Source: Enterobacteria phage P922. Taken from it: 64,000 nt of DNA. A program made the translations under genes and the position numbers. Shown here one piece after another: positions 606-45,685 of this stretch (positions are counted from its first letter, which is position 1; each line of letters begins with the position of its first letter). The stretch lies in sequence record OR999189.1; one strand, written 5' to 3'. The notes beneath the pieces were generated by a model that searched no databases, had not been told where the DNA came from, and was given only the letters and a program-made list of their open reading frames with translations.

Positions 606-2193
<1,588 letters not shown>

Positions 2194-28420: not shown

Positions 28421-29038
28421 TTATGCCTTACTAAATTTGCCTTTAGAATCTCTTTTCATGAGACGACCTTTAATAAATCCGTCGGGAATAATACCGTCTG
28501 GTTGTATTAATTTATTTATTGCGCCATTATTGACCCAAAAAGTTCCTGTTGTAGTCGGTTTGACTTTACATCCTTTTCTGGACTTTCTATTAGGATGAAC
28601 CATCCCTTTTACAAATCCTTCTGGAACAAGTTCTCCAGGCTTAATAAAAATATTTTTAGTTCCATTAGTGTAACAAGTTGTACCTAATACCGTGCCCGGT
28701 GAGTTTTCAAATCTCTTAGCGGAAGATTCTTTCATCTTTGCTATAACCTCTGTAGTCATAACAATTCCACCAATTCCACCAGGTTTCATATTATAATAAT
28801 TTTTGCTTTTTATTAGTTCAGGAGTTATAATTTCTTCTTCATACATGTACGCTTCTTCGGAAGTTTTAAACTCTTTTAGTATTTTTCTAGAGAAATTGTT
28901 TTCACCATATTTCTTTATAGCCTGCTGAATTGCCTTACCGGAACCAATGTAGCCATCATTCAGGTCGTCAGTAGAGTGCTTTCCTATATACTTTTTACCA
29001 TTTATTAGATTTGTTGTTTCATATACAAAGTGGTACAT
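28421..29038 (-). CDS. segE: GIY-YIG free-standing homing endonuclease (seg family, SegE-like by position), 205 aa
   Basis: N-terminal GIY-YIG module YHFVYETTNLINGKKYIGKH; located between uvsW and inh where T4 carries segE. Confidence 0.75.
   Translation of the reverse strand: MYHFVYETTNLINGKKYIGKHSTDDLNDGYIGSGKAIQQAIKKYGENNFSRKILKEFKTSEEAYMYEEEIITPELIKSKNYYNMKPGGIGGIVMTTEVIAKMKESSAKRFENSPGTVLGTTCYTNGTKNIFIKPGELVPEGFVKGMVHPNRKSRKGCKVKPTTTGTFWVNNGAINKLIQPDGIIPDGFIKGRLMKRDSKGKFSKA
28421..29038 (-). mobile_element. Free-standing homing endonuclease gene (GIY-YIG)
   Basis: Same ORF as above; such genes are mobile in T-even phages. Confidence 0.6.
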
Positions 29039-32521: not shown

Positions 32522-33805
32522 TTATTCATCAACGATAATTTTTGGTAGCTTAACACCTAATAAAACAGACAAATCTGAACGACCCGCCATTTTATCCATG
32601 TCTCCACCATCAATTATTCTTGCTTCTTTTTCATCTTTTGCTACAGTGTAAGGATTTGCAGATAAAGCATATCTAACTAATAAACCAATAGATGGCTGCA
32701 AACTTTCTGGATCAACTACAACTTTAAATGCACCTACATGTTCAGGGTCATCTAAGTCCAGACCTTCTGTATACGGGGCATAGAAAATTGATCCAACAAT
32801 TTCTTTTTCGCCAATATTTTCTACCACGCCAACGATTACATAATCTAATGGGCTGTTAGTGTCACAATAAAGCGGTAAACCATTAGCTAAGAACCCGTAG
32901 GCATTTTGTGAAAGATATTTATCATCTTCTGGTTTATGTTTTAACCAACCTGATGCGGCAAGAATCGCAGCAGCACGAGCTGAAGCAACACAGAACGTTG
33001 CTGTATAAGTTGATTCTTTTTGGATATGCGAAACCATTTCACACACCATTCGGTATAATGAACGACCAGCTTCAGGTGCAGATGCATAACTCAAATCAAT
33101 GAATCCGGTGTCAGTAATTCCTGTAACTTTATAGCGTTTTGATACTGTAATCAAAGACTGTAGAATATCTTTATTGATTTCATCCGCCATTTCAGTTGCA
33201 AGCAAATCTTCCAAGAAATTAGGAGCATCGAATCCATTTGCTTCTAAATCTTGTGCTAATTCAACTGTGATGCCAGTTTTAAGTTTACGAGATTTAACTG
33301 CGGTTTGCCATTTATTAATCTGGAATCTAGCATCCGCAATTTCGCTATCAGAGCTTTCAAATTTGCTTGTTGACGCTGCGTCAGAAAATAGGCGAACCTT
33401 TAAAAGAACAATTGCAATCTGAAGAGCTAATTCTAAATCGCTTTCTTCAATGGTAGCAAATGGTGTATCTTCTAATACTTTATAAACGATATTATTATAT
33501 TTGAATAAATCGCCTTTATTGAGAGTTAATTTAGACTCTTCTGTTAATTCTGTGATTTGTTCTCGGTCTACATACCCAGCTTCACCAGCGTAAGTAGCAC
33601 CAGTTTTAAACGTAAATTCGTTGTCTGGGTTAAGGTATTTGATACCATAAAAAGCAGCAACAGGTTGATTAGTTCTTTGTGTTGCTACAATGTCAGAATA
33701 TATTAATTTAGTGGTAGCGCGAGTCAAAGCAACGAGATTTGGGCGACCGATTGAGTTGCTATTCGTTGTGGTTGATTCGCGCAGAAGTTCGTTGATTTTA
33801 GCCAT
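32522..33805 (-). CDS. 24: Head vertex protein gp24, 427 aa
   Basis: Paralog-like similarity to gp23 fold region; length and synteny. Confidence 0.92.
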   Translation of the reverse strand: MAKINELLRESTTTNSNSIGRPNLVALTRATTKLIYSDIVATQRTNQPVAAFYGIKYLNPDNEFTFKTGATYAGEAGYVDREQITELTEESKLTLNKGDLFKYNNIVYKVLEDTPFATIEESDLELALQIAIVLLKVRLFSDAASTSKFESSDSEIADARFQINKWQTAVKSRKLKTGITVELAQDLEANGFDAPNFLEDLLATEMADEINKDILQSLITVSKRYKVTGITDTGFIDLSYASAPEAGRSLYRMVCEMVSHIQKESTYTATFCVASARAAAILAASGWLKHKPEDDKYLSQNAYGFLANGLPLYCDTNSPLDYVIVGVVENIGEKEIVGSIFYAPYTEGLDLDDPEHVGAFKVVVDPESLQPSIGLLVRYALSANPYTVAKDEKEARIIDGGDMDKMAGRSDLSVLLGVKLPKIIVDE

Positions 33806-33888
33806 TGCGCTTTCCTTTTGGTTTATATGATTTATTTATACCATAAAAACAACTAAAGGGACCCGAAGGTCCCTTAAATCGTCAAAGA

Positions 33889-35454
33889 TTAGATACCTTT
33901 AACATATACACGGCGGAAGTAAGCGTTTTTACCAAGGCTATTCAGAATAGAAGGCATACCGCTCTGGATGCGAGAAGCCGGAGCCTGAGCAGCGGATTCT
34001 GCAAATGGGTTGATACCGATACCGTAACGAGTTTTGAATCCCATTACTGGTTGGAAGTTCTTCGGATCGGAACCACGCAGCGGAGTCAGAGCTACATATG
34101 GAGCATAGTAAATACCAGCATCCATTTCGTTCGGACCTTTATAACCTACAGTGAAATAATCCTGTTTAGCATACTGGTCGATATATACACGGTATTTACC
34201 ACCCAGAACACCAGCAAATACTGACTTGGTAGTATCAGTGTTAAAGCCGGTAGCCAGACCCTGTGCAGCATAAGAAATGCCAGTATCAACTGAAGCCAGA
34301 ACGTTAACTACGTTACGGGAAGCGATAATGAAGTTACCTTCACCACGACCGGTCTGACGAGCAATTTCAACTGCTTCTTTGTCAATCTGGAACAACAGAG
34401 CTTTAAAGGATTCACCCGCCCAGCGAGCACCACGAATATCAATCGGATCCTGGAAGTCAAATACACCAGCTTTAGAACCTGGAGTCAGGGTCATACCAGA
34501 TTTACCAACCTGAGCTGAGTAGTTAATCCAATCAACAACTTCACGGTTGATTTCCAGCATGATTTCGGTAGCCAGAATACCAGACAGTTCAGCATCAGCA
34601 TCCATACCGTGAACAGCGCGGAGGTCTTGTGCTAATTCGATAGAGTAAGCAGCTTTCAGCTGACGAGATTTAGCTTCGATAACTTGTTTATCGATACGGA
34701 AGCCCATTTCATTCCATGGGTTATCGGTAGAACCGTTGAAACCTTCCTGAAGTTCAGCGATAGAAGTAGCCATACCTTCAGCGATTTCTACCAGTACACC
34801 AGCTTCCATTTGTTTCTTAATTTCAGCATCTAATTTAGCTACGTCAGATGCAGTGGAATCAATTTGTTTAGCTTCTGTAGCTTGCAGATACACAGTACCA
34901 GTGTCCTGGAAGAAGTGGGTGTAAATAGTTCCAACTTCAAGAGTATCACTTGCTTTCAAAGCAGCGAATTTCTTAGCAGCACCCTGACCAGAGAACATTG
35001 CATCTGGACCATACATTGGGTGGAATGCTTCTTTAGCACCTGAAGCGATTGGGTCTTTACCATATACAGCACGCAGTGCGAATACCTGACCAGTCGGGCT
35101 GTTCATCGGCTGAACACCGCAAATATCGAAAGCAATCAGGTTAGGAATAGCACGACGTACCATACCCATAACAGCTGGGCCAATCTGAGTTACTGCGCCA
35201 GAAGTCTGACCAGCAGCGATGTTAGTAGCATTGTAACCATGGTCACCACCGATTTCAGCTTCTGTTAAGAAAGAACCGAACGCTTGGGCGATTTTTTCGT
35301 CTTTGTACTCTGGAGCTGTCTGGAAATCTTTTTCCTGGTTTTCAAAGATTTTAGCGATAATCGCTTGTTTGCTATTAGCAATTTCCGGTAAACCTTCACC
35401 TTCCAGTAATGGCTTCCATTTGTTCAAAAGTTCAGCTTTAGTTTTGATAGTCAT
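33889..35454 (-). CDS. 23: Major capsid protein gp23, 521 aa
   Basis: Length 521 aa, strong match to recalled T4 gp23. Confidence 0.96.
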   Translation of the reverse strand: MTIKTKAELLNKWKPLLEGEGLPEIANSKQAIIAKIFENQEKDFQTAPEYKDEKIAQAFGSFLTEAEIGGDHGYNATNIAAGQTSGAVTQIGPAVMGMVRRAIPNLIAFDICGVQPMNSPTGQVFALRAVYGKDPIASGAKEAFHPMYGPDAMFSGQGAAKKFAALKASDTLEVGTIYTHFFQDTGTVYLQATEAKQIDSTASDVAKLDAEIKKQMEAGVLVEIAEGMATSIAELQEGFNGSTDNPWNEMGFRIDKQVIEAKSRQLKAAYSIELAQDLRAVHGMDADAELSGILATEIMLEINREVVDWINYSAQVGKSGMTLTPGSKAGVFDFQDPIDIRGARWAGESFKALLFQIDKEAVEIARQTGRGEGNFIIASRNVVNVLASVDTGISYAAQGLATGFNTDTTKSVFAGVLGGKYRVYIDQYAKQDYFTVGYKGPNEMDAGIYYAPYVALTPLRGSDPKNFQPVMGFKTRYGIGINPFAESAAQAPASRIQSGMPSILNSLGKNAYFRRVYVKGI

Positions 35455-39281: not shown

Positions 39282-39773
39282 TTATTCCCAATAATCGAGA
39301 GCGAGAGTTACTTCAAAGGTTTGGATTTCATTGTTTGAATCCCAATCTAACTGAAGTTCACCCACGTTAGTAGGCCACAGGCCTTTAATTTCGACTTCTT
39401 TTGTTACAGTTTTAGCGTCACGAGCATATTGGCGTACAATAGCACTCTTTTTATACTCTGCTGGTTTTCCACCAGTAATTTCGTTTCCTTGCCCAGCAGC
39501 AATGCTTTGCCAGTCAACAAACTTCTGGCGTGCATCATGCGCCTCATCATTCATTACTGTAATAGTCCAGTCATCGAATGTACGATCGCCTGCTACGTTA
39601 ATTTTACGGTTCATAAATCCGACTGGAATTTTTTCTACAATACCAGCTGGTAAAGCAGTGGCTTTACATTGAAACGTAAAATTTTGTCCAAGATAAGAAA
39701 TTTCTACTTGGAATAAGTTAGGTCGAGCAAAATCACCAGATTCAAACGCTCGTGTTACATCATCTACAAACAT
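39282..39773 (-). CDS. 19: Tail tube protein gp19, 163 aa
   Basis: Length 163 aa and synteny. Confidence 0.93.
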   Translation of the reverse strand: MFVDDVTRAFESGDFARPNLFQVEISYLGQNFTFQCKATALPAGIVEKIPVGFMNRKINVAGDRTFDDWTITVMNDEAHDARQKFVDWQSIAAGQGNEITGGKPAEYKKSAIVRQYARDAKTVTKEVEIKGLWPTNVGELQLDWDSNNEIQTFEVTLALDYWE

Positions 39774-39786
39774 ATTAGCCTCTGTA

Positions 39787-39794
39787 GTATTTAT
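39787..39794 (-). promoter_or_regulatory. Late promoter TATAAATA proximal to gene 19
   Basis: TATTTATA on plus strand 13 nt upstream of gp19 ATG. Confidence 0.5.
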
Positions 39795-39846
39795 ATCCCT
39801 ATGTTTAACCTAGGGCATATAGAATTAAAGAATTAAGGATATAGTG

Positions 39847-39854
39847 TATTTATA
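39847..39854 (-). promoter_or_regulatory. Second late promoter TATAAATA, directly downstream of HNH gene hairpin
   Basis: TATTTATA on plus strand; preceded on minus strand by GGCCTG-TTTCGG-CAGGCC hairpin. Confidence 0.45.
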
Positions 39855-39880
39855 TGGCCTGCCGAAACAGGCCTTTAGAA

Positions 39881-40498
39881 TCATTCTAGCAAATCCCAAA
39901 GATCTACACTATTTCTTTTTGACTTTTCTCGGTTAGATTCCCAAGTGATTATTTCTAAATTATTAATACCGCCAATTATTTTAGCAGGAATTAAATTATC
40001 AAAACCGTATTTGATAGATACCTTATGATCAAGTTGGTAAGCACCTTCTGTACCACACACTCCTATCTTATCAGCATTCGGCCATTTTGACCAAATTTTC
40101 TTATGCTTACGAGTTTCTCTATATACAGATGAAATATATTCACGCATTTCAGATTTATTTGGGTTCCATCTTGGATGATTTACGCCATGCATACATTCTA
40201 CTGTTTTTCCTTTATTCGCGGAACCATATGAATTATTATGCATTTTGTCTTTATGACGGCAATCACAACAAATATCAGTGTTTCTTCCAATGCGTTGATT
40301 ATATTCAATTCCACATTTATCGCAACGACATTTTACATACGCGGTACTACCTTTAATGTCTTCAACTTTAACATCAATTTCATAATACTTAAATCCGTGT
40401 TTAACCGCTCCAAGAGGTGTTAATTTATATCCCTTTGACTGATAATGTTTAAAATTTGATGGTACAATTTTTACTTTAATGAATTTAGAAATAATCAC
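39881..40498 (-). CDS. HNH-family free-standing homing endonuclease-like protein with zinc-ribbon, 205 aa, apparent GTG start
   Basis: CxxC...CxxC cluster (CRCDKCG...CCDCRH) and HNH-like motif (QLDHKVSIKYG...NLEIITWESNREKSKRN); inserted between 18 and 19. Confidence 0.75.
   Translation of the reverse strand: MIISKFIKVKIVPSNFKHYQSKGYKLTPLGAVKHGFKYYEIDVKVEDIKGSTAYVKCRCDKCGIEYNQRIGRNTDICCDCRHKDKMHNNSYGSANKGKTVECMHGVNHPRWNPNKSEMREYISSVYRETRKHKKIWSKWPNADKIGVCGTEGAYQLDHKVSIKYGFDNLIPAKIIGGINNLEIITWESNREKSKRNSVDLWDLLE
39881..40498 (-). mobile_element. Free-standing homing endonuclease gene (HNH) between tail sheath and tail tube genes
   Basis: Same ORF; flanked by hairpins and a duplicated late promoter. 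Confidence 0.55.
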
Positions 40499-40536
40499 TT
40501 GATTCCTCGAGAACAGGGGCCGAAGCCCCTTATCAA

Positions 40537-42516
40537 TTAACCTGCAAGACCAGTTAACTCATCGAAATCTGCACCAGTAGCAGTTGCGACGAAATTCAAA
40601 GTAATATAATTTATACTGCGCGCCGGTTGGATGTAGAATGTTGCAACAAACTCATTTCTATCAATTACTGACGGAGTGTTATTTGTTGTATCGCAAACTA
40701 CACGATATTCATAAATTCCACCGAGAGCTTTAATTCCCTGTAAGTATTGGGCAGTTTCTGTGCGGAATGATGAACGAGTAAACGCGTTGTTTAATTCGAA
40801 CAAACGATATTTTGAACTACGTCCGATATTCGTTTTCAACATATTAAACAGACGACGAACGTTAATACGATCAAATGGAGAAGGAACAGAAGTAGCTGTT
40901 TTATCACCATACAATACGTAACCATCACCACCTGTGCCAGTTACTGGGTTGATAGCTTCTTGGTATAAACGGTCGCGCTGAGCTTGGCGAGTTTCAATAG
41001 CAAGTTTAATAACGTTAAGAATCTGGCCGCGATTATAACCAGCTGGAGACATCCAAGTCTGAGAAACGTTATCGGTTCTTGCACATAAACCGGCAATATC
41101 AGCTGCTAATGGAACCCAGCGATTGACATCATTATATTTGTCATACTGATATTTGTAGTTACCATCAATTGCTGCGTAGGTTGAACTGATATTAAAGTTA
41201 TTATCAGTGTATGAACCTGTTGCAGTTCTCCAATTGACTAAGTTATCAACAGCGCGAGTTACAGGAATTCCAACTACAGTTTCGCGCGGTGGTGAGCACA
41301 ATACTAAGCAATCCTGGCGAGCATCCCCAATTGAAACGACGTGTTTTTGGACAGTAGATGCTGTTTCTAAAGATTCACCGGCACAAGAACCCGCAATAAA
41401 CAACTGAACGTCAACAGATTCACGGTCAGCAAAGAAGTCCCAGGCTTCCATTAAATCTCCTGCTGTTACTTCAGCATTTGATGATAATCCACCAGACAGA
41501 GTTAAAATTCCAGAGAATCCTTCTGGCCAGTTTTGTGCAGTTGCGAAAATATATTCTGAACCGCCTTTTGCGAAAAAGTCATCAATGTAGATGTTACTAT
41601 CGTAAATATCTTTTTCACCACGCTTTGTTGAAAGAACAATACTTTGAACAATAGCATCATTACGACGAACTATAATAGCGTATTGCGAATCAGTTTGTGG
41701 TCCATATCCAAAAACTGCCTTGGCAGTAGATGCGCGTGTTCCGCCACCTGGATAAATTGGAAGTAATGCAGAAGCACCTTTTGCGTAGTCAGCTTTAGAT
41801 ACGATTTCAATTTCGATTTTATCGCCCAACTCGCCCGGATAAAGAGCTACTACTCCTGGAATTCCATATTTTTCGAGATTTGCCTGAAAGTCAACCGCTG
41901 TCATAGCAGCTTCAGCATTTTCAATCTCAGCTAATAAAATACCGGAATCAGTAATAATTTTTCCAAGAGTTATTACTGCAGCTAAACCAGATGAAGACGA
42001 AGAAATTTCCGCGGTCCAGTTAGAACCTAATGCTGGATATTCACCGACTTCTTTCGCTTTAGCGATAATTTTTGCGGTAGGAATACTAATTTTCTTAATT
42101 TTTCCATCAGCATCTACTTCGGTAATTTTACCTTCCGTTTCAATGTCTTCTGAAACATACTTAACTGTGATTTTATCTCCAACCGCGTAGTTACTACCTG
42201 GAGTAGAAATAGTGTATTCAATATTACCAGCAATCGGAGATGAGTTTTTAGCGGTATCTCTATCGACAGCACGCACAACTCGCAAATCATTTCCATATTG
42301 TAAGAAATTCATTGCAGACATAAAATAGTCAGCAGTTTCAGCTGTAGGTTGACCAAAAGTATTAACTAAATCTACTTCATTTGTAACCTGTTTGATCTGA
42401 AAAGCAGGACCCCACTGGAATTTACCGGCCAAAGCTGCTGTACCAGTAGAGTTATTAACCACGGTGCTTTGAACCGTAGTTTCTTTGAGCTCAATGCCCG
42501 GAGATAATAAAGTCAT
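40537..42516 (-). CDS. 18: Tail sheath protein gp18, 659 aa
   Basis: Length 659 aa and synteny. Confidence 0.95.
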   Translation of the reverse strand: MTLLSPGIELKETTVQSTVVNNSTGTAALAGKFQWGPAFQIKQVTNEVDLVNTFGQPTAETADYFMSAMNFLQYGNDLRVVRAVDRDTAKNSSPIAGNIEYTISTPGSNYAVGDKITVKYVSEDIETEGKITEVDADGKIKKISIPTAKIIAKAKEVGEYPALGSNWTAEISSSSSGLAAVITLGKIITDSGILLAEIENAEAAMTAVDFQANLEKYGIPGVVALYPGELGDKIEIEIVSKADYAKGASALLPIYPGGGTRASTAKAVFGYGPQTDSQYAIIVRRNDAIVQSIVLSTKRGEKDIYDSNIYIDDFFAKGGSEYIFATAQNWPEGFSGILTLSGGLSSNAEVTAGDLMEAWDFFADRESVDVQLFIAGSCAGESLETASTVQKHVVSIGDARQDCLVLCSPPRETVVGIPVTRAVDNLVNWRTATGSYTDNNFNISSTYAAIDGNYKYQYDKYNDVNRWVPLAADIAGLCARTDNVSQTWMSPAGYNRGQILNVIKLAIETRQAQRDRLYQEAINPVTGTGGDGYVLYGDKTATSVPSPFDRINVRRLFNMLKTNIGRSSKYRLFELNNAFTRSSFRTETAQYLQGIKALGGIYEYRVVCDTTNNTPSVIDRNEFVATFYIQPARSINYITLNFVATATGADFDELTGLAG

Positions 42517-42544: not shown

Positions 42545-45685
<3,141 letters not shown>

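Follow-up and report, generated by a model that had tools for sequence, protein, structure and literature searches.

A probable free-standing homing-endonuclease-type gene of the T6 ORF19.1 family at the junction of tail sheath and tail tube genes in Enterobacteria phage P922

A 205-amino-acid (aa) open reading frame (ORF) separates gene 18 (tail sheath) from gene 19 (tail tube) in Enterobacteria phage P922 (sequence record OR999189.1), of which a stretch of 64,000 nucleotides (nt) was analyzed (hereafter the window; all positions are numbered within it). The surrounding late-gene region is T4-like (Tequatrovirus), with the order 17, 18, ORF, 19, and 20 on the minus strand, and positions 39774-40536 make up the entire 18-19 intergenic region. 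Judged by its sequence, the ORF belongs to the T6 ORF19.1 family, as its RB3-type (A) allele, and is probably a homing-endonuclease-type gene of the free-standing sort. Genes of this kind are already known from T-even phages, and the family itself has been on record since 1994 and was never characterized. The encoded protein appears to consist of two modules: a variable N-terminal Cys4 part that would serve in DNA recognition, and a conserved C-terminal domain of ~90 aa with an HNH-like beta-beta-alpha-metal core. New here are the HNH-like assignment, the cassette swap between the A allele and the T6-type (B) allele, the existence of two insertion points, and the family-wide tie to the sheath gene.

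That the ORF is a real gene, and not a chance reading frame, is confirmed by a profile search with its protein, in which PHROG 5104 ("unknown function") matched residues 1-204 with E=1.1e-90, by the occurrence of homologs in 245 phage records (tblastn search), and by a ratio of non-synonymous to synonymous substitution rates (dN/dS) of ~0.1 inside each of the A and B alleles. Its GC content is 31.9%, compared with ~40% in genes 18 and 19. Over the 18-19 stretch the nearest records are Escherichia phages LYE-01 and W143 (99.3-99.4% identity), and an Rfam scan of the locus returned no intron and no other RNA family.

In T4, genes 18 and 19 are parted by a spacer of 116 nt with no gene between them. 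Alignment to T4 and comparison of the junction in 14 phages delimit an insert of 654 nt in the window, which begins 1 nt past the stop codon of gene 18 and takes the place of ACGGTGC (7 nt) in the empty, T4-type junction; its boundary is ambiguous by 1 nt at either end. With slashes at the boundaries, the empty site reads TAA-T/ACGGTGC/ATTCTAAAGGCC... and the occupied site TAA-T/TGAT..GGGGCTTCGGCCCC..ORF..GAATG/ATTCTAAAGGCC..., the former being identical in the five non-carriers and the latter in the nine carriers among these phages. For a wider census, a phage collection was searched with diagnostic pieces of the locus, namely the 80-nt empty T4 junction and the 5′ half of the ORF of each allele. 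The empty junction was intact in 382 records, the A allele (that of the window and RB3) was present in 47, including RB3, RB5-RB10, HP3, several Shigella phages and others, and the B allele was present in 70. The insert is thus carried by ~23% of the T-even-like records and absent from ~77%. An initial annotation of the window, made without database searches, had described the ORF as a free-standing gene that had been inserted at this place and had recommended a comparison of this junction across T-even genomes. Both the absence from T4 and the clean, clearly polymorphic junction agree with that description and show the gene to be optional.

Nearly all records that carry the ORF annotate it as "hypothetical protein", and a few automatic annotations call it "homing endonuclease", "type II restriction endonuclease" or, wrongly, "head morphogenesis protein". 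In a 2010 survey of T4-related genomes for homing endonuclease genes, the table has no "other HNH" or "hef-like" gene for RB3 (PMC2993671), so the ORF was not counted there. Two records deserve mention on their own account. GenBank MG010123.1 ("Staphylococcus phage SAJK-IND", 32 kb) matches the ORF-containing 18-19 region of T-even phages over 1.9 kb (96.8% identity) and looks mislabelled or contaminated, and HP3 (NC_041919) is filed under Rosemountvirus though it is T4-like at the 18-19 locus.

The census also bears on a possible role in DNA packaging. Since the ORF lies two genes downstream of the large terminase gene 17, its product could be a nuclease that assists terminase, like the HNH proteins encoded beside the terminase genes of HK97-like and GVE2-like phages. 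However, T4 and the 382 records with an empty junction show that the ORF is dispensable, the sheath gene separates it from the terminase genes, and its steady association is with the sheath 3′ end. Moreover, T4-type phages package by a headful mechanism that uses the nuclease of gp17 itself. We therefore regard a packaging function as highly improbable.

Sequence comparisons further show that the history of the ORF is decoupled from that of the structural genes around it. Between A and B the ORF shows 57% identity, as against 99% for gp18 and gp19 of the phages that carry these alleles. In Dhakavirus, likewise, three phages share gp18 at 95-99% and gp19 at 100% identity, and their ORF alleles are only 37-63% identical. 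In addition, the allele types cross genera, the A type being closest to the Jiaodavirus and Dhakavirus alleles and the B type to another Dhakavirus allele. The ORF is thus phylogenetically incongruent with gp18 and gp19. The divergence between the two T-even alleles is also unevenly distributed. The nucleotide identity of A and B is 82% in codons 1-15, 35-60% in codons 16-127, and 91-98% in codons ~133-205, except for codons 171-185 (71%), whereas the A allele and that of Klebsiella phage Merci show an even 52-80% identity from end to end. By this mosaic pattern, the cassette encoding the zinc module has been exchanged within a resident element.

Two insertion points can be distinguished in Dhakavirus. 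In PSD9 and UP19 the element immediately follows the stop codon of the sheath gene, ahead of the native Dhakavirus spacer of ~125 nt, whereas in Escherichia phage Bp7 the order is the native spacer, then an element of a third allele type, directly before gene 19. In Bp7 (locus L007, 3769-5630), genes 19 and 20 have another annotated HNH endonuclease gene between them, and the portal gene 20 is annotated as two parts, gp20′ and gp20. Relatives of the C-terminal domain occur inside genes of other phages. One of them, Acj133p227 (273 aa), splits rnlA of Acinetobacter phage 133 into rnlA-A and rnlA-B (locus L026, 1570-3647), a second lies inside the split nrdA of Klebsiella phage KP13-7, and a third, CP21_075 (388 aa), lies inside the fragmented tail sheath gene of Campylobacter phage CP21. 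Profile comparison of the C-terminal domain by hhalign gave probabilities of 98.8-99.0% for the gene-splitting ORFs of phages 133 and CP21. The rnlA gene of the window (1033-2193) is intact; in CP21 (locus L029, 1-6261) the sheath gene is broken into at least four fragments around the 388-aa ORF, and three putative homing endonuclease genes follow. Among nine ORF copies inspected, the sole clearly degraded one is the B allele of Escherichia phage Pu-Krd-SF2 (locus L018, 2501-3106), in which a Gln codon at about codon 89 has become a stop.

Taken together, the presence/absence polymorphism and the phylogenetic incongruence form a pattern that favors mobility. The initial annotation had named, as the finding that would speak against a mobile gene, an ORF that is universally present and syntenic in T4-like genomes. 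Synteny across T4-like phages is indeed what we observed, but the gene is polymorphic and its phylogeny incongruent. All 13 full-length homologs examined, from nine phage genomes of five genera (Tequatrovirus, Jiaodavirus, Dhakavirus, Hadassahvirus, and Emdodecavirus) and from four metagenomic T4-like contigs, directly follow a tail sheath gene, and the tail-tube gene is next or one ORF further on at each of these loci except that of phiM7. The proteins encoded on the metagenomic contigs are 34-45% identical to the window protein. This constancy of position in all five genera and the contigs, the low dN/dS, the intactness of most ORF copies, and flanks that are fully mixed between carriers and non-carriers could alternatively be explained by an old accessory gene, which is inherited mostly vertically, benefits the phage through exclusion or degradation of rival DNA or in late DNA metabolism, and was deleted in the T4 lineage. 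Such a history appears rather unlikely in view of alleles that diverge this far next to nearly identical gp18 and gp19 (95-100%) and whose types are common to several genera, of the two insertion points within the Dhakavirus spacer, of the lack of the ORF at one clean junction in ~77% of the T-even-like records, and of nuclease-domain relatives that interrupt genes, as is typical of selfish elements.

The predicted protein is consistent with a nuclease of the homing-endonuclease type. Both the Cys4 cluster (C59-x2-C62...C77-x2-C80) and the HNH-like motif (YQLDH(157-158)...NL(180)...WESN(189)REK, also given as YQLDH...NLEIITWESNREK) that the initial annotation had recognized are present, and their residues are largely invariant. 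In alignments of 36 and 40 homologs with identities down to ~33%, the unchanged positions are C59, C62, C77, D157, H158, N180, L181, W186, N189, and K192, and the D-H/N/N residues also remain invariant in an alignment of the C-terminal part that takes in the phiM7, Bp7, and KP13-7 sequences. At codon 78 (40265-40267), beside the zinc ligands C77 and C80, the window encodes CCDC as opposed to CRDC in RB3, HP3, ADUt, sb3, and ECp13 (R78C). An HNH motif comprises a His acting as general base, often with an Asp before it, a structural Asn, and a His or Asn as metal ligand in the following helix; D157-H158, N180, and N189 occur in this order. In an AlphaFold model built on the homolog alignment (mean predicted local distance difference test score, pLDDT, 86.9), D157-H158 ends the strand of residues 154-158, N180 starts the strand 181-185, and N189 lies in the helix 186-192, which corresponds to the predicted beta-beta-alpha arrangement of HNH nucleases around the motif.

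Among solved structures, the best matches of the model are the small HNH nicking endonucleases Gme HNH (4h9d) and GVE2 HNH (5h0o), both of them weak, and a Foldseek search of the model against the PDB yielded no match. Against predicted viral structures (BFVD), Foldseek retrieved proteins annotated as HNH or homing endonucleases with E-values of 1e-6 to 1e-4. The Pfam family HNH_4 matched two of 36 homologs weakly (best E 0.0056), and the DUF4379 treble-clef zinc-finger model gave weak matches in 11 of the 36. PDB sequence searches with the single sequence or the full profile retrieved zinc-finger or ribosomal zinc-ribbon proteins only, and a PDB profile search with the C-terminal domain produced spurious leucine-rich-repeat matches and a Cas8f-HNH fusion at E=1.1. 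We conclude that the C-terminal ~90 residues form a divergent HNH-like domain whose motif ends in Asn, and that the N-terminal ~100 residues make up a zinc-containing module, which probably binds DNA. The HNH assignment of the initial annotation is thereby supported by the invariant D-H/N/N residues, the predicted beta-beta-alpha fold, and the weak matches to HNH nickases.

A protein inactive as a nuclease would be another explanation for such a sequence, that is, a zinc-finger nucleic-acid binder, for instance a regulator of late gene 19, in which the HNH-like fold has degenerated. The third motif position, which is Asn and not His, would fit a binder of this kind, as would sequence matches to solved structures that are confined to zinc fingers and the lack of a match to a curated HNH profile. 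Yet D-H, N, and N have stayed invariant over homologs that are only ~30% identical, and the ORFs that interrupt rnlA, nrdA, and a sheath gene contain this domain too. Furthermore, Asn in the last position of the motif is compatible with activity, as I-HmuI and the HNH domain of Cas9 show. We deem a loss of nuclease function improbable.

The insert brings its own hairpin to the locus. According to the initial annotation the ORF is bracketed by GC hairpins, and both of these exist, but only the upstream one belongs to the insert, whereas the downstream one is native to T4. The GGGGCUUCGGCCCC stem-loop of the insert sits just past the gene 18 stop codon and 7 nt ahead of the Shine-Dalgarno sequence of the ORF. 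Because of this position, gene 18 keeps a 3′ hairpin as it does in T4. Comparable stem-loops of unrelated sequence stand upstream of the homolog in six other lineages (Merci, AbTZA1, PSD9/UP19, phiM7, and Bp7). Downstream of the insert the spacer equals that of T4 base for base, including the GGCCTGTTTCGGCAGGCC hairpin and both TATAAATA octamers. The late-promoter octamer does occur twice downstream of the ORF, as had been stated; however, since the two copies and the hairpin are native to insert-free T4, the insert did not duplicate a promoter, and the proposal that it had carried or copied that of gene 19 is wrong. In the whole window, TATAAATA was counted 21 times against 9.4 expected from shuffles (one of 100 shuffles reached 21), and the majority precede late structural genes at short distance, as T4 late promoters would.

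The start codon of the ORF is GTG, a reading that is well supported by sequence comparison. In agreement with the initial annotation, which had seen a GTG behind AGGA and no ATG, the GTG is preceded by GAGGAA, and there is no in-frame ATG near the N-terminus, the first internal Met being at about residue 86. A GTG behind (G/A)AGGA is common to the Tequatrovirus A and B alleles, Merci, and the Dhakavirus phages PSD9 and UP19, with AAGGAA or AAGGA in Merci and PSD9. The GTG itself recurs in Tequatrovirus, Jiaodavirus, and Dhakavirus alleles of the A/B type, and it is this recurrence that lends the assignment its support; the protein of Merci is 65% identical to the window protein. In the distant homologs of AbTZA1, Bp7, phiM7, and three metagenomic contigs, an ATG start is found at the same MII... 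position. The 1994 GenBank entry of T6 had already remarked that ORF19.1 would "likely begin by GTG codon". RB3, HP3, ADUt, T6, and the T6-type MLF4 have an ATG in frame 11 codons further upstream, at the foot of the hairpin and without a good Shine-Dalgarno sequence; the matching codon is AAG in the window and GTG in Pu-Krd-SF2.

The initial annotation had supposed that the GTG would give weak translation; both sequence and spacing of the Shine-Dalgarno element of the ORF are good. Sequestration of the ribosome-binding site was considered and rejected, as the Shine-Dalgarno sequence and the GTG pair only in the minimum-free-energy fold and not in the centroid. A scan for sigma-70 promoters and terminators performed no better than on shuffled sequences, TATAAATA is absent from the 38 nt that separate the ORF from gene 18, and a scripted scan of the 500 nt upstream of the ORF gave no match to MotA-box or TGCTT motifs. 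Since no promoter motif of the insert's own was found, low-level late read-through of the gene 18 transcript, whose promoter motif is the TATAAATA copy at 42545-42552, is the likely route of expression. The features of the locus are compiled in Table 1.

Table 1. Features of the 18-19 locus of phage P922 (positions within the window)
Feature	Position	Strand	Basis or remark
Gene 17	42548-44380	-	Large terminase
Gene 18	40537-42516	-	Tail sheath
Gene 18 3′ end, conserved sheath C-terminus LNFVATATGADFDELTGLAG (LNFVATATGADFDEL...)	40537-40600	-	Candidate recognition region
Insert relative to T4, 654 nt	39882-40535	-	Junction comparison of 14 phages and T4 alignment
Insert-borne hairpin GGGGCTTCGGCCCC, stem-loop GGGGCUUCGGCCCC with UUCG loop	40516-40529	-	Sequence and RNA folding; T4 without it
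Shine-Dalgarno sequence GAGGAA	40503-40508	-	6 nt before GTG (4 nt from end of GAGGAA)
ORF, 205 aa plus stop	39881-40498	-	GTG start at 40496-40498; A (RB3-type) allele of T6 ORF19.1 family
Variable cassette, codons ~16-130	40109-40453	-	Nucleotide comparison of A and B
Cys4 cluster CDKC...C(C/R)DC, codons 59-80	40259-40324	-	Putative treble-clef or zinc-ribbon DNA-binding module
Conserved C-terminal nuclease-like domain, codons 114-205	39884-40159	-	Homolog alignments, predicted structure
HNH-like core D157, H158, N180, N189, K192	39923-40030	-	Invariant residues
Native downstream hairpin GGCCTGTTTCGGCAGGCC, stem-loop GGCCUGUUUCGGCAGGCC	39856-39873	-	Outside the insert; in T4 directly after gene 18
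Native late-promoter-like octamer TATAAATA, distal copy	39847-39854	-	Also in insert-free T4
Native late-promoter-like octamer TATAAATA, proximal to gene 19	39788-39795	-	Also in insert-free T4
Gene 19	39282-39773	-	Tail tube

If the ORF encodes a homing endonuclease, its spread might proceed as follows. Upon co-infection with a phage that has an empty junction, the enzyme would nick or cut the element-free DNA at or near the 18-19 junction, and the recombination-dependent repair of T4-type phages would copy the 654-nt element into the broken genome. The insertion would destroy or displace the target site, and the stem-loop of the insert would replace the 3′ hairpin parted from gene 18, which could limit the harm done to the host gene. 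The 3′ end of gene 18 is a plausible recognition region, because the sheath C-terminus that it encodes is conserved across all compared phages, at the nucleotide level too, and nothing else that borders the insertion point is conserved across genera.

In a more far-reaching interpretation, which we put forward only tentatively and consider somewhat doubtful, the ORF19.1 family would be a distinct HNH-like lineage that has kept to the 3′ end of the sheath gene throughout the T4-like phages, with several old alleles in competition for this one locus; in T-even phages, the putative recognition cassette (codons 16-130) has been swapped and the nuclease domain and both ends of the element retained. 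Family members follow the sheath gene in enterobacterial, Acinetobacter, Sinorhizobium, and environmental phages, and in a Campylobacter phage one lies within it. If the A and B proteins recognize different sequences, they may attack each other's genomes, and the locus would then offer a natural case of element-versus-element competition and specificity switching, or of a nuclease adopted by the phage to exclude rivals. Free-standing homing endonuclease genes shape the inheritance of markers in co-infection and mark the boundaries of genetic exchange. An easy test system is at hand, with T4 as natural empty recipient and RB3-type and T6-type phages as natural donors with different N-terminal modules, and it could address how such enzymes choose and change their targets. 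Recognition of the family as HNH-type would also improve the annotation of T4-like genomes, where it concerns ~245 records; the general picture of T-even phage biology is unchanged by it.

Several observations weigh against a homing-endonuclease-type gene. The window protein matches no family in Pfam or NCBIfam and hence no curated HNH profile, and the last catalytic position of its motif is Asn where His would be expected. The flanks of carriers and non-carriers show no fixed single-nucleotide polymorphisms, the sole candidate being an alignment artefact inside the insert, and flank diversity within each of the two groups equals that between them. Without fixed differences there is no signature of co-conversion, and gain and loss in Tequatrovirus are not distinguishable from the sequences. 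The strict synteny, the strong purifying selection, and the single degraded copy would also fit a gene beneficial to the phage. For no member of the ORF19.1 family did we find published cleavage or inheritance data. Membership in the Mob family was rejected, as hhalign assigned a probability of 0.1% to the C-terminal domain profile against T4 MobE and the order of domains is reversed, and kinship to the annotated HNH protein of Bp7 was rejected because hhalign found no relationship. On the other hand, fidelity to one locus is also expected of a homing element with a conserved target.

Of the systems already described, T6 ORF19.1 is the closest to the window ORF. The two have the same locus, an identical junction after the gene 18 stop codon, the same upstream hairpin, and the same GTG start, and as members of one family they are 49% identical by tblastn and 57% in a local alignment, with mostly 91-98% identity over the 3′ ~220 nt. 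They differ in the central ~350 nt (codons 16-130, encoding the zinc module), which are only 35-60% identical. The T6 entry of 1994 did not assign a function. The ORFs that split genes, Acj133p227, CP21_075, and that in nrdA of KP13-7, share with the window ORF a homologous C-terminal domain of ~90 aa with the same D-H/N/N residues and are also matched by tblastn. In contrast to it, they have other, longer N-termini and lie inside genes and not between them. Accordingly, the annotators of phage 133 noted for Acj133p227 "some similarity to ORF19.1 of Enterobacteria phage T6". A wider resemblance exists to Gme HNH (4h9d), GVE2 HNH (5h0o), and Cas9-type HNH domains (Pfam HNH_4), which have the D-H...N...N-R-x-K spacing pattern of the window ORF, a pattern that resembles the HNH motif of Cas9.

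Hef of phage U5, named for its homing endonuclease-like function, replaces mobE and is described as an endonuclease of T4-related phages that has no similarity to known homing endonuclease families and has homologs in Campylobacter phages (PMC3322345; PMC2988022). The family of the window ORF likewise has Campylobacter-phage relatives, a likeness by description; a second profile search for homologs added only unnamed or "hypothetical" proteins, none of them called Hef. The window also contains a second homing-endonuclease-type gene, a 205-aa ORF at 28421-29038 on the minus strand (Pfam SegE_GIY-YIG, E=5e-9), which by gene order apparently has uvsW on one side and inh on the other, as segE does in T4. 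Two ORFs of 521 and 427 aa at 32522-35454 on the minus strand, taken as genes 23 and 24 by size and order only, are 83 nt apart, so the phage seems to be without segD, which T4 has between these genes (PMC2988022). Lastly, the Mob genes of T4 (MobA-E) are free-standing, intergenic, and patchily distributed genes of the HNH type, whose products combine a nuclease with a DNA-binding part (PMC2988022). Whereas the nuclease is N-terminal in Mob proteins (PMC2988022), it would be C-terminal in the product of the window ORF, which otherwise resembles MobA-E in its intergenic position between conserved genes, its HNH-type motif, its patchy occurrence among close relatives, and its modular build.

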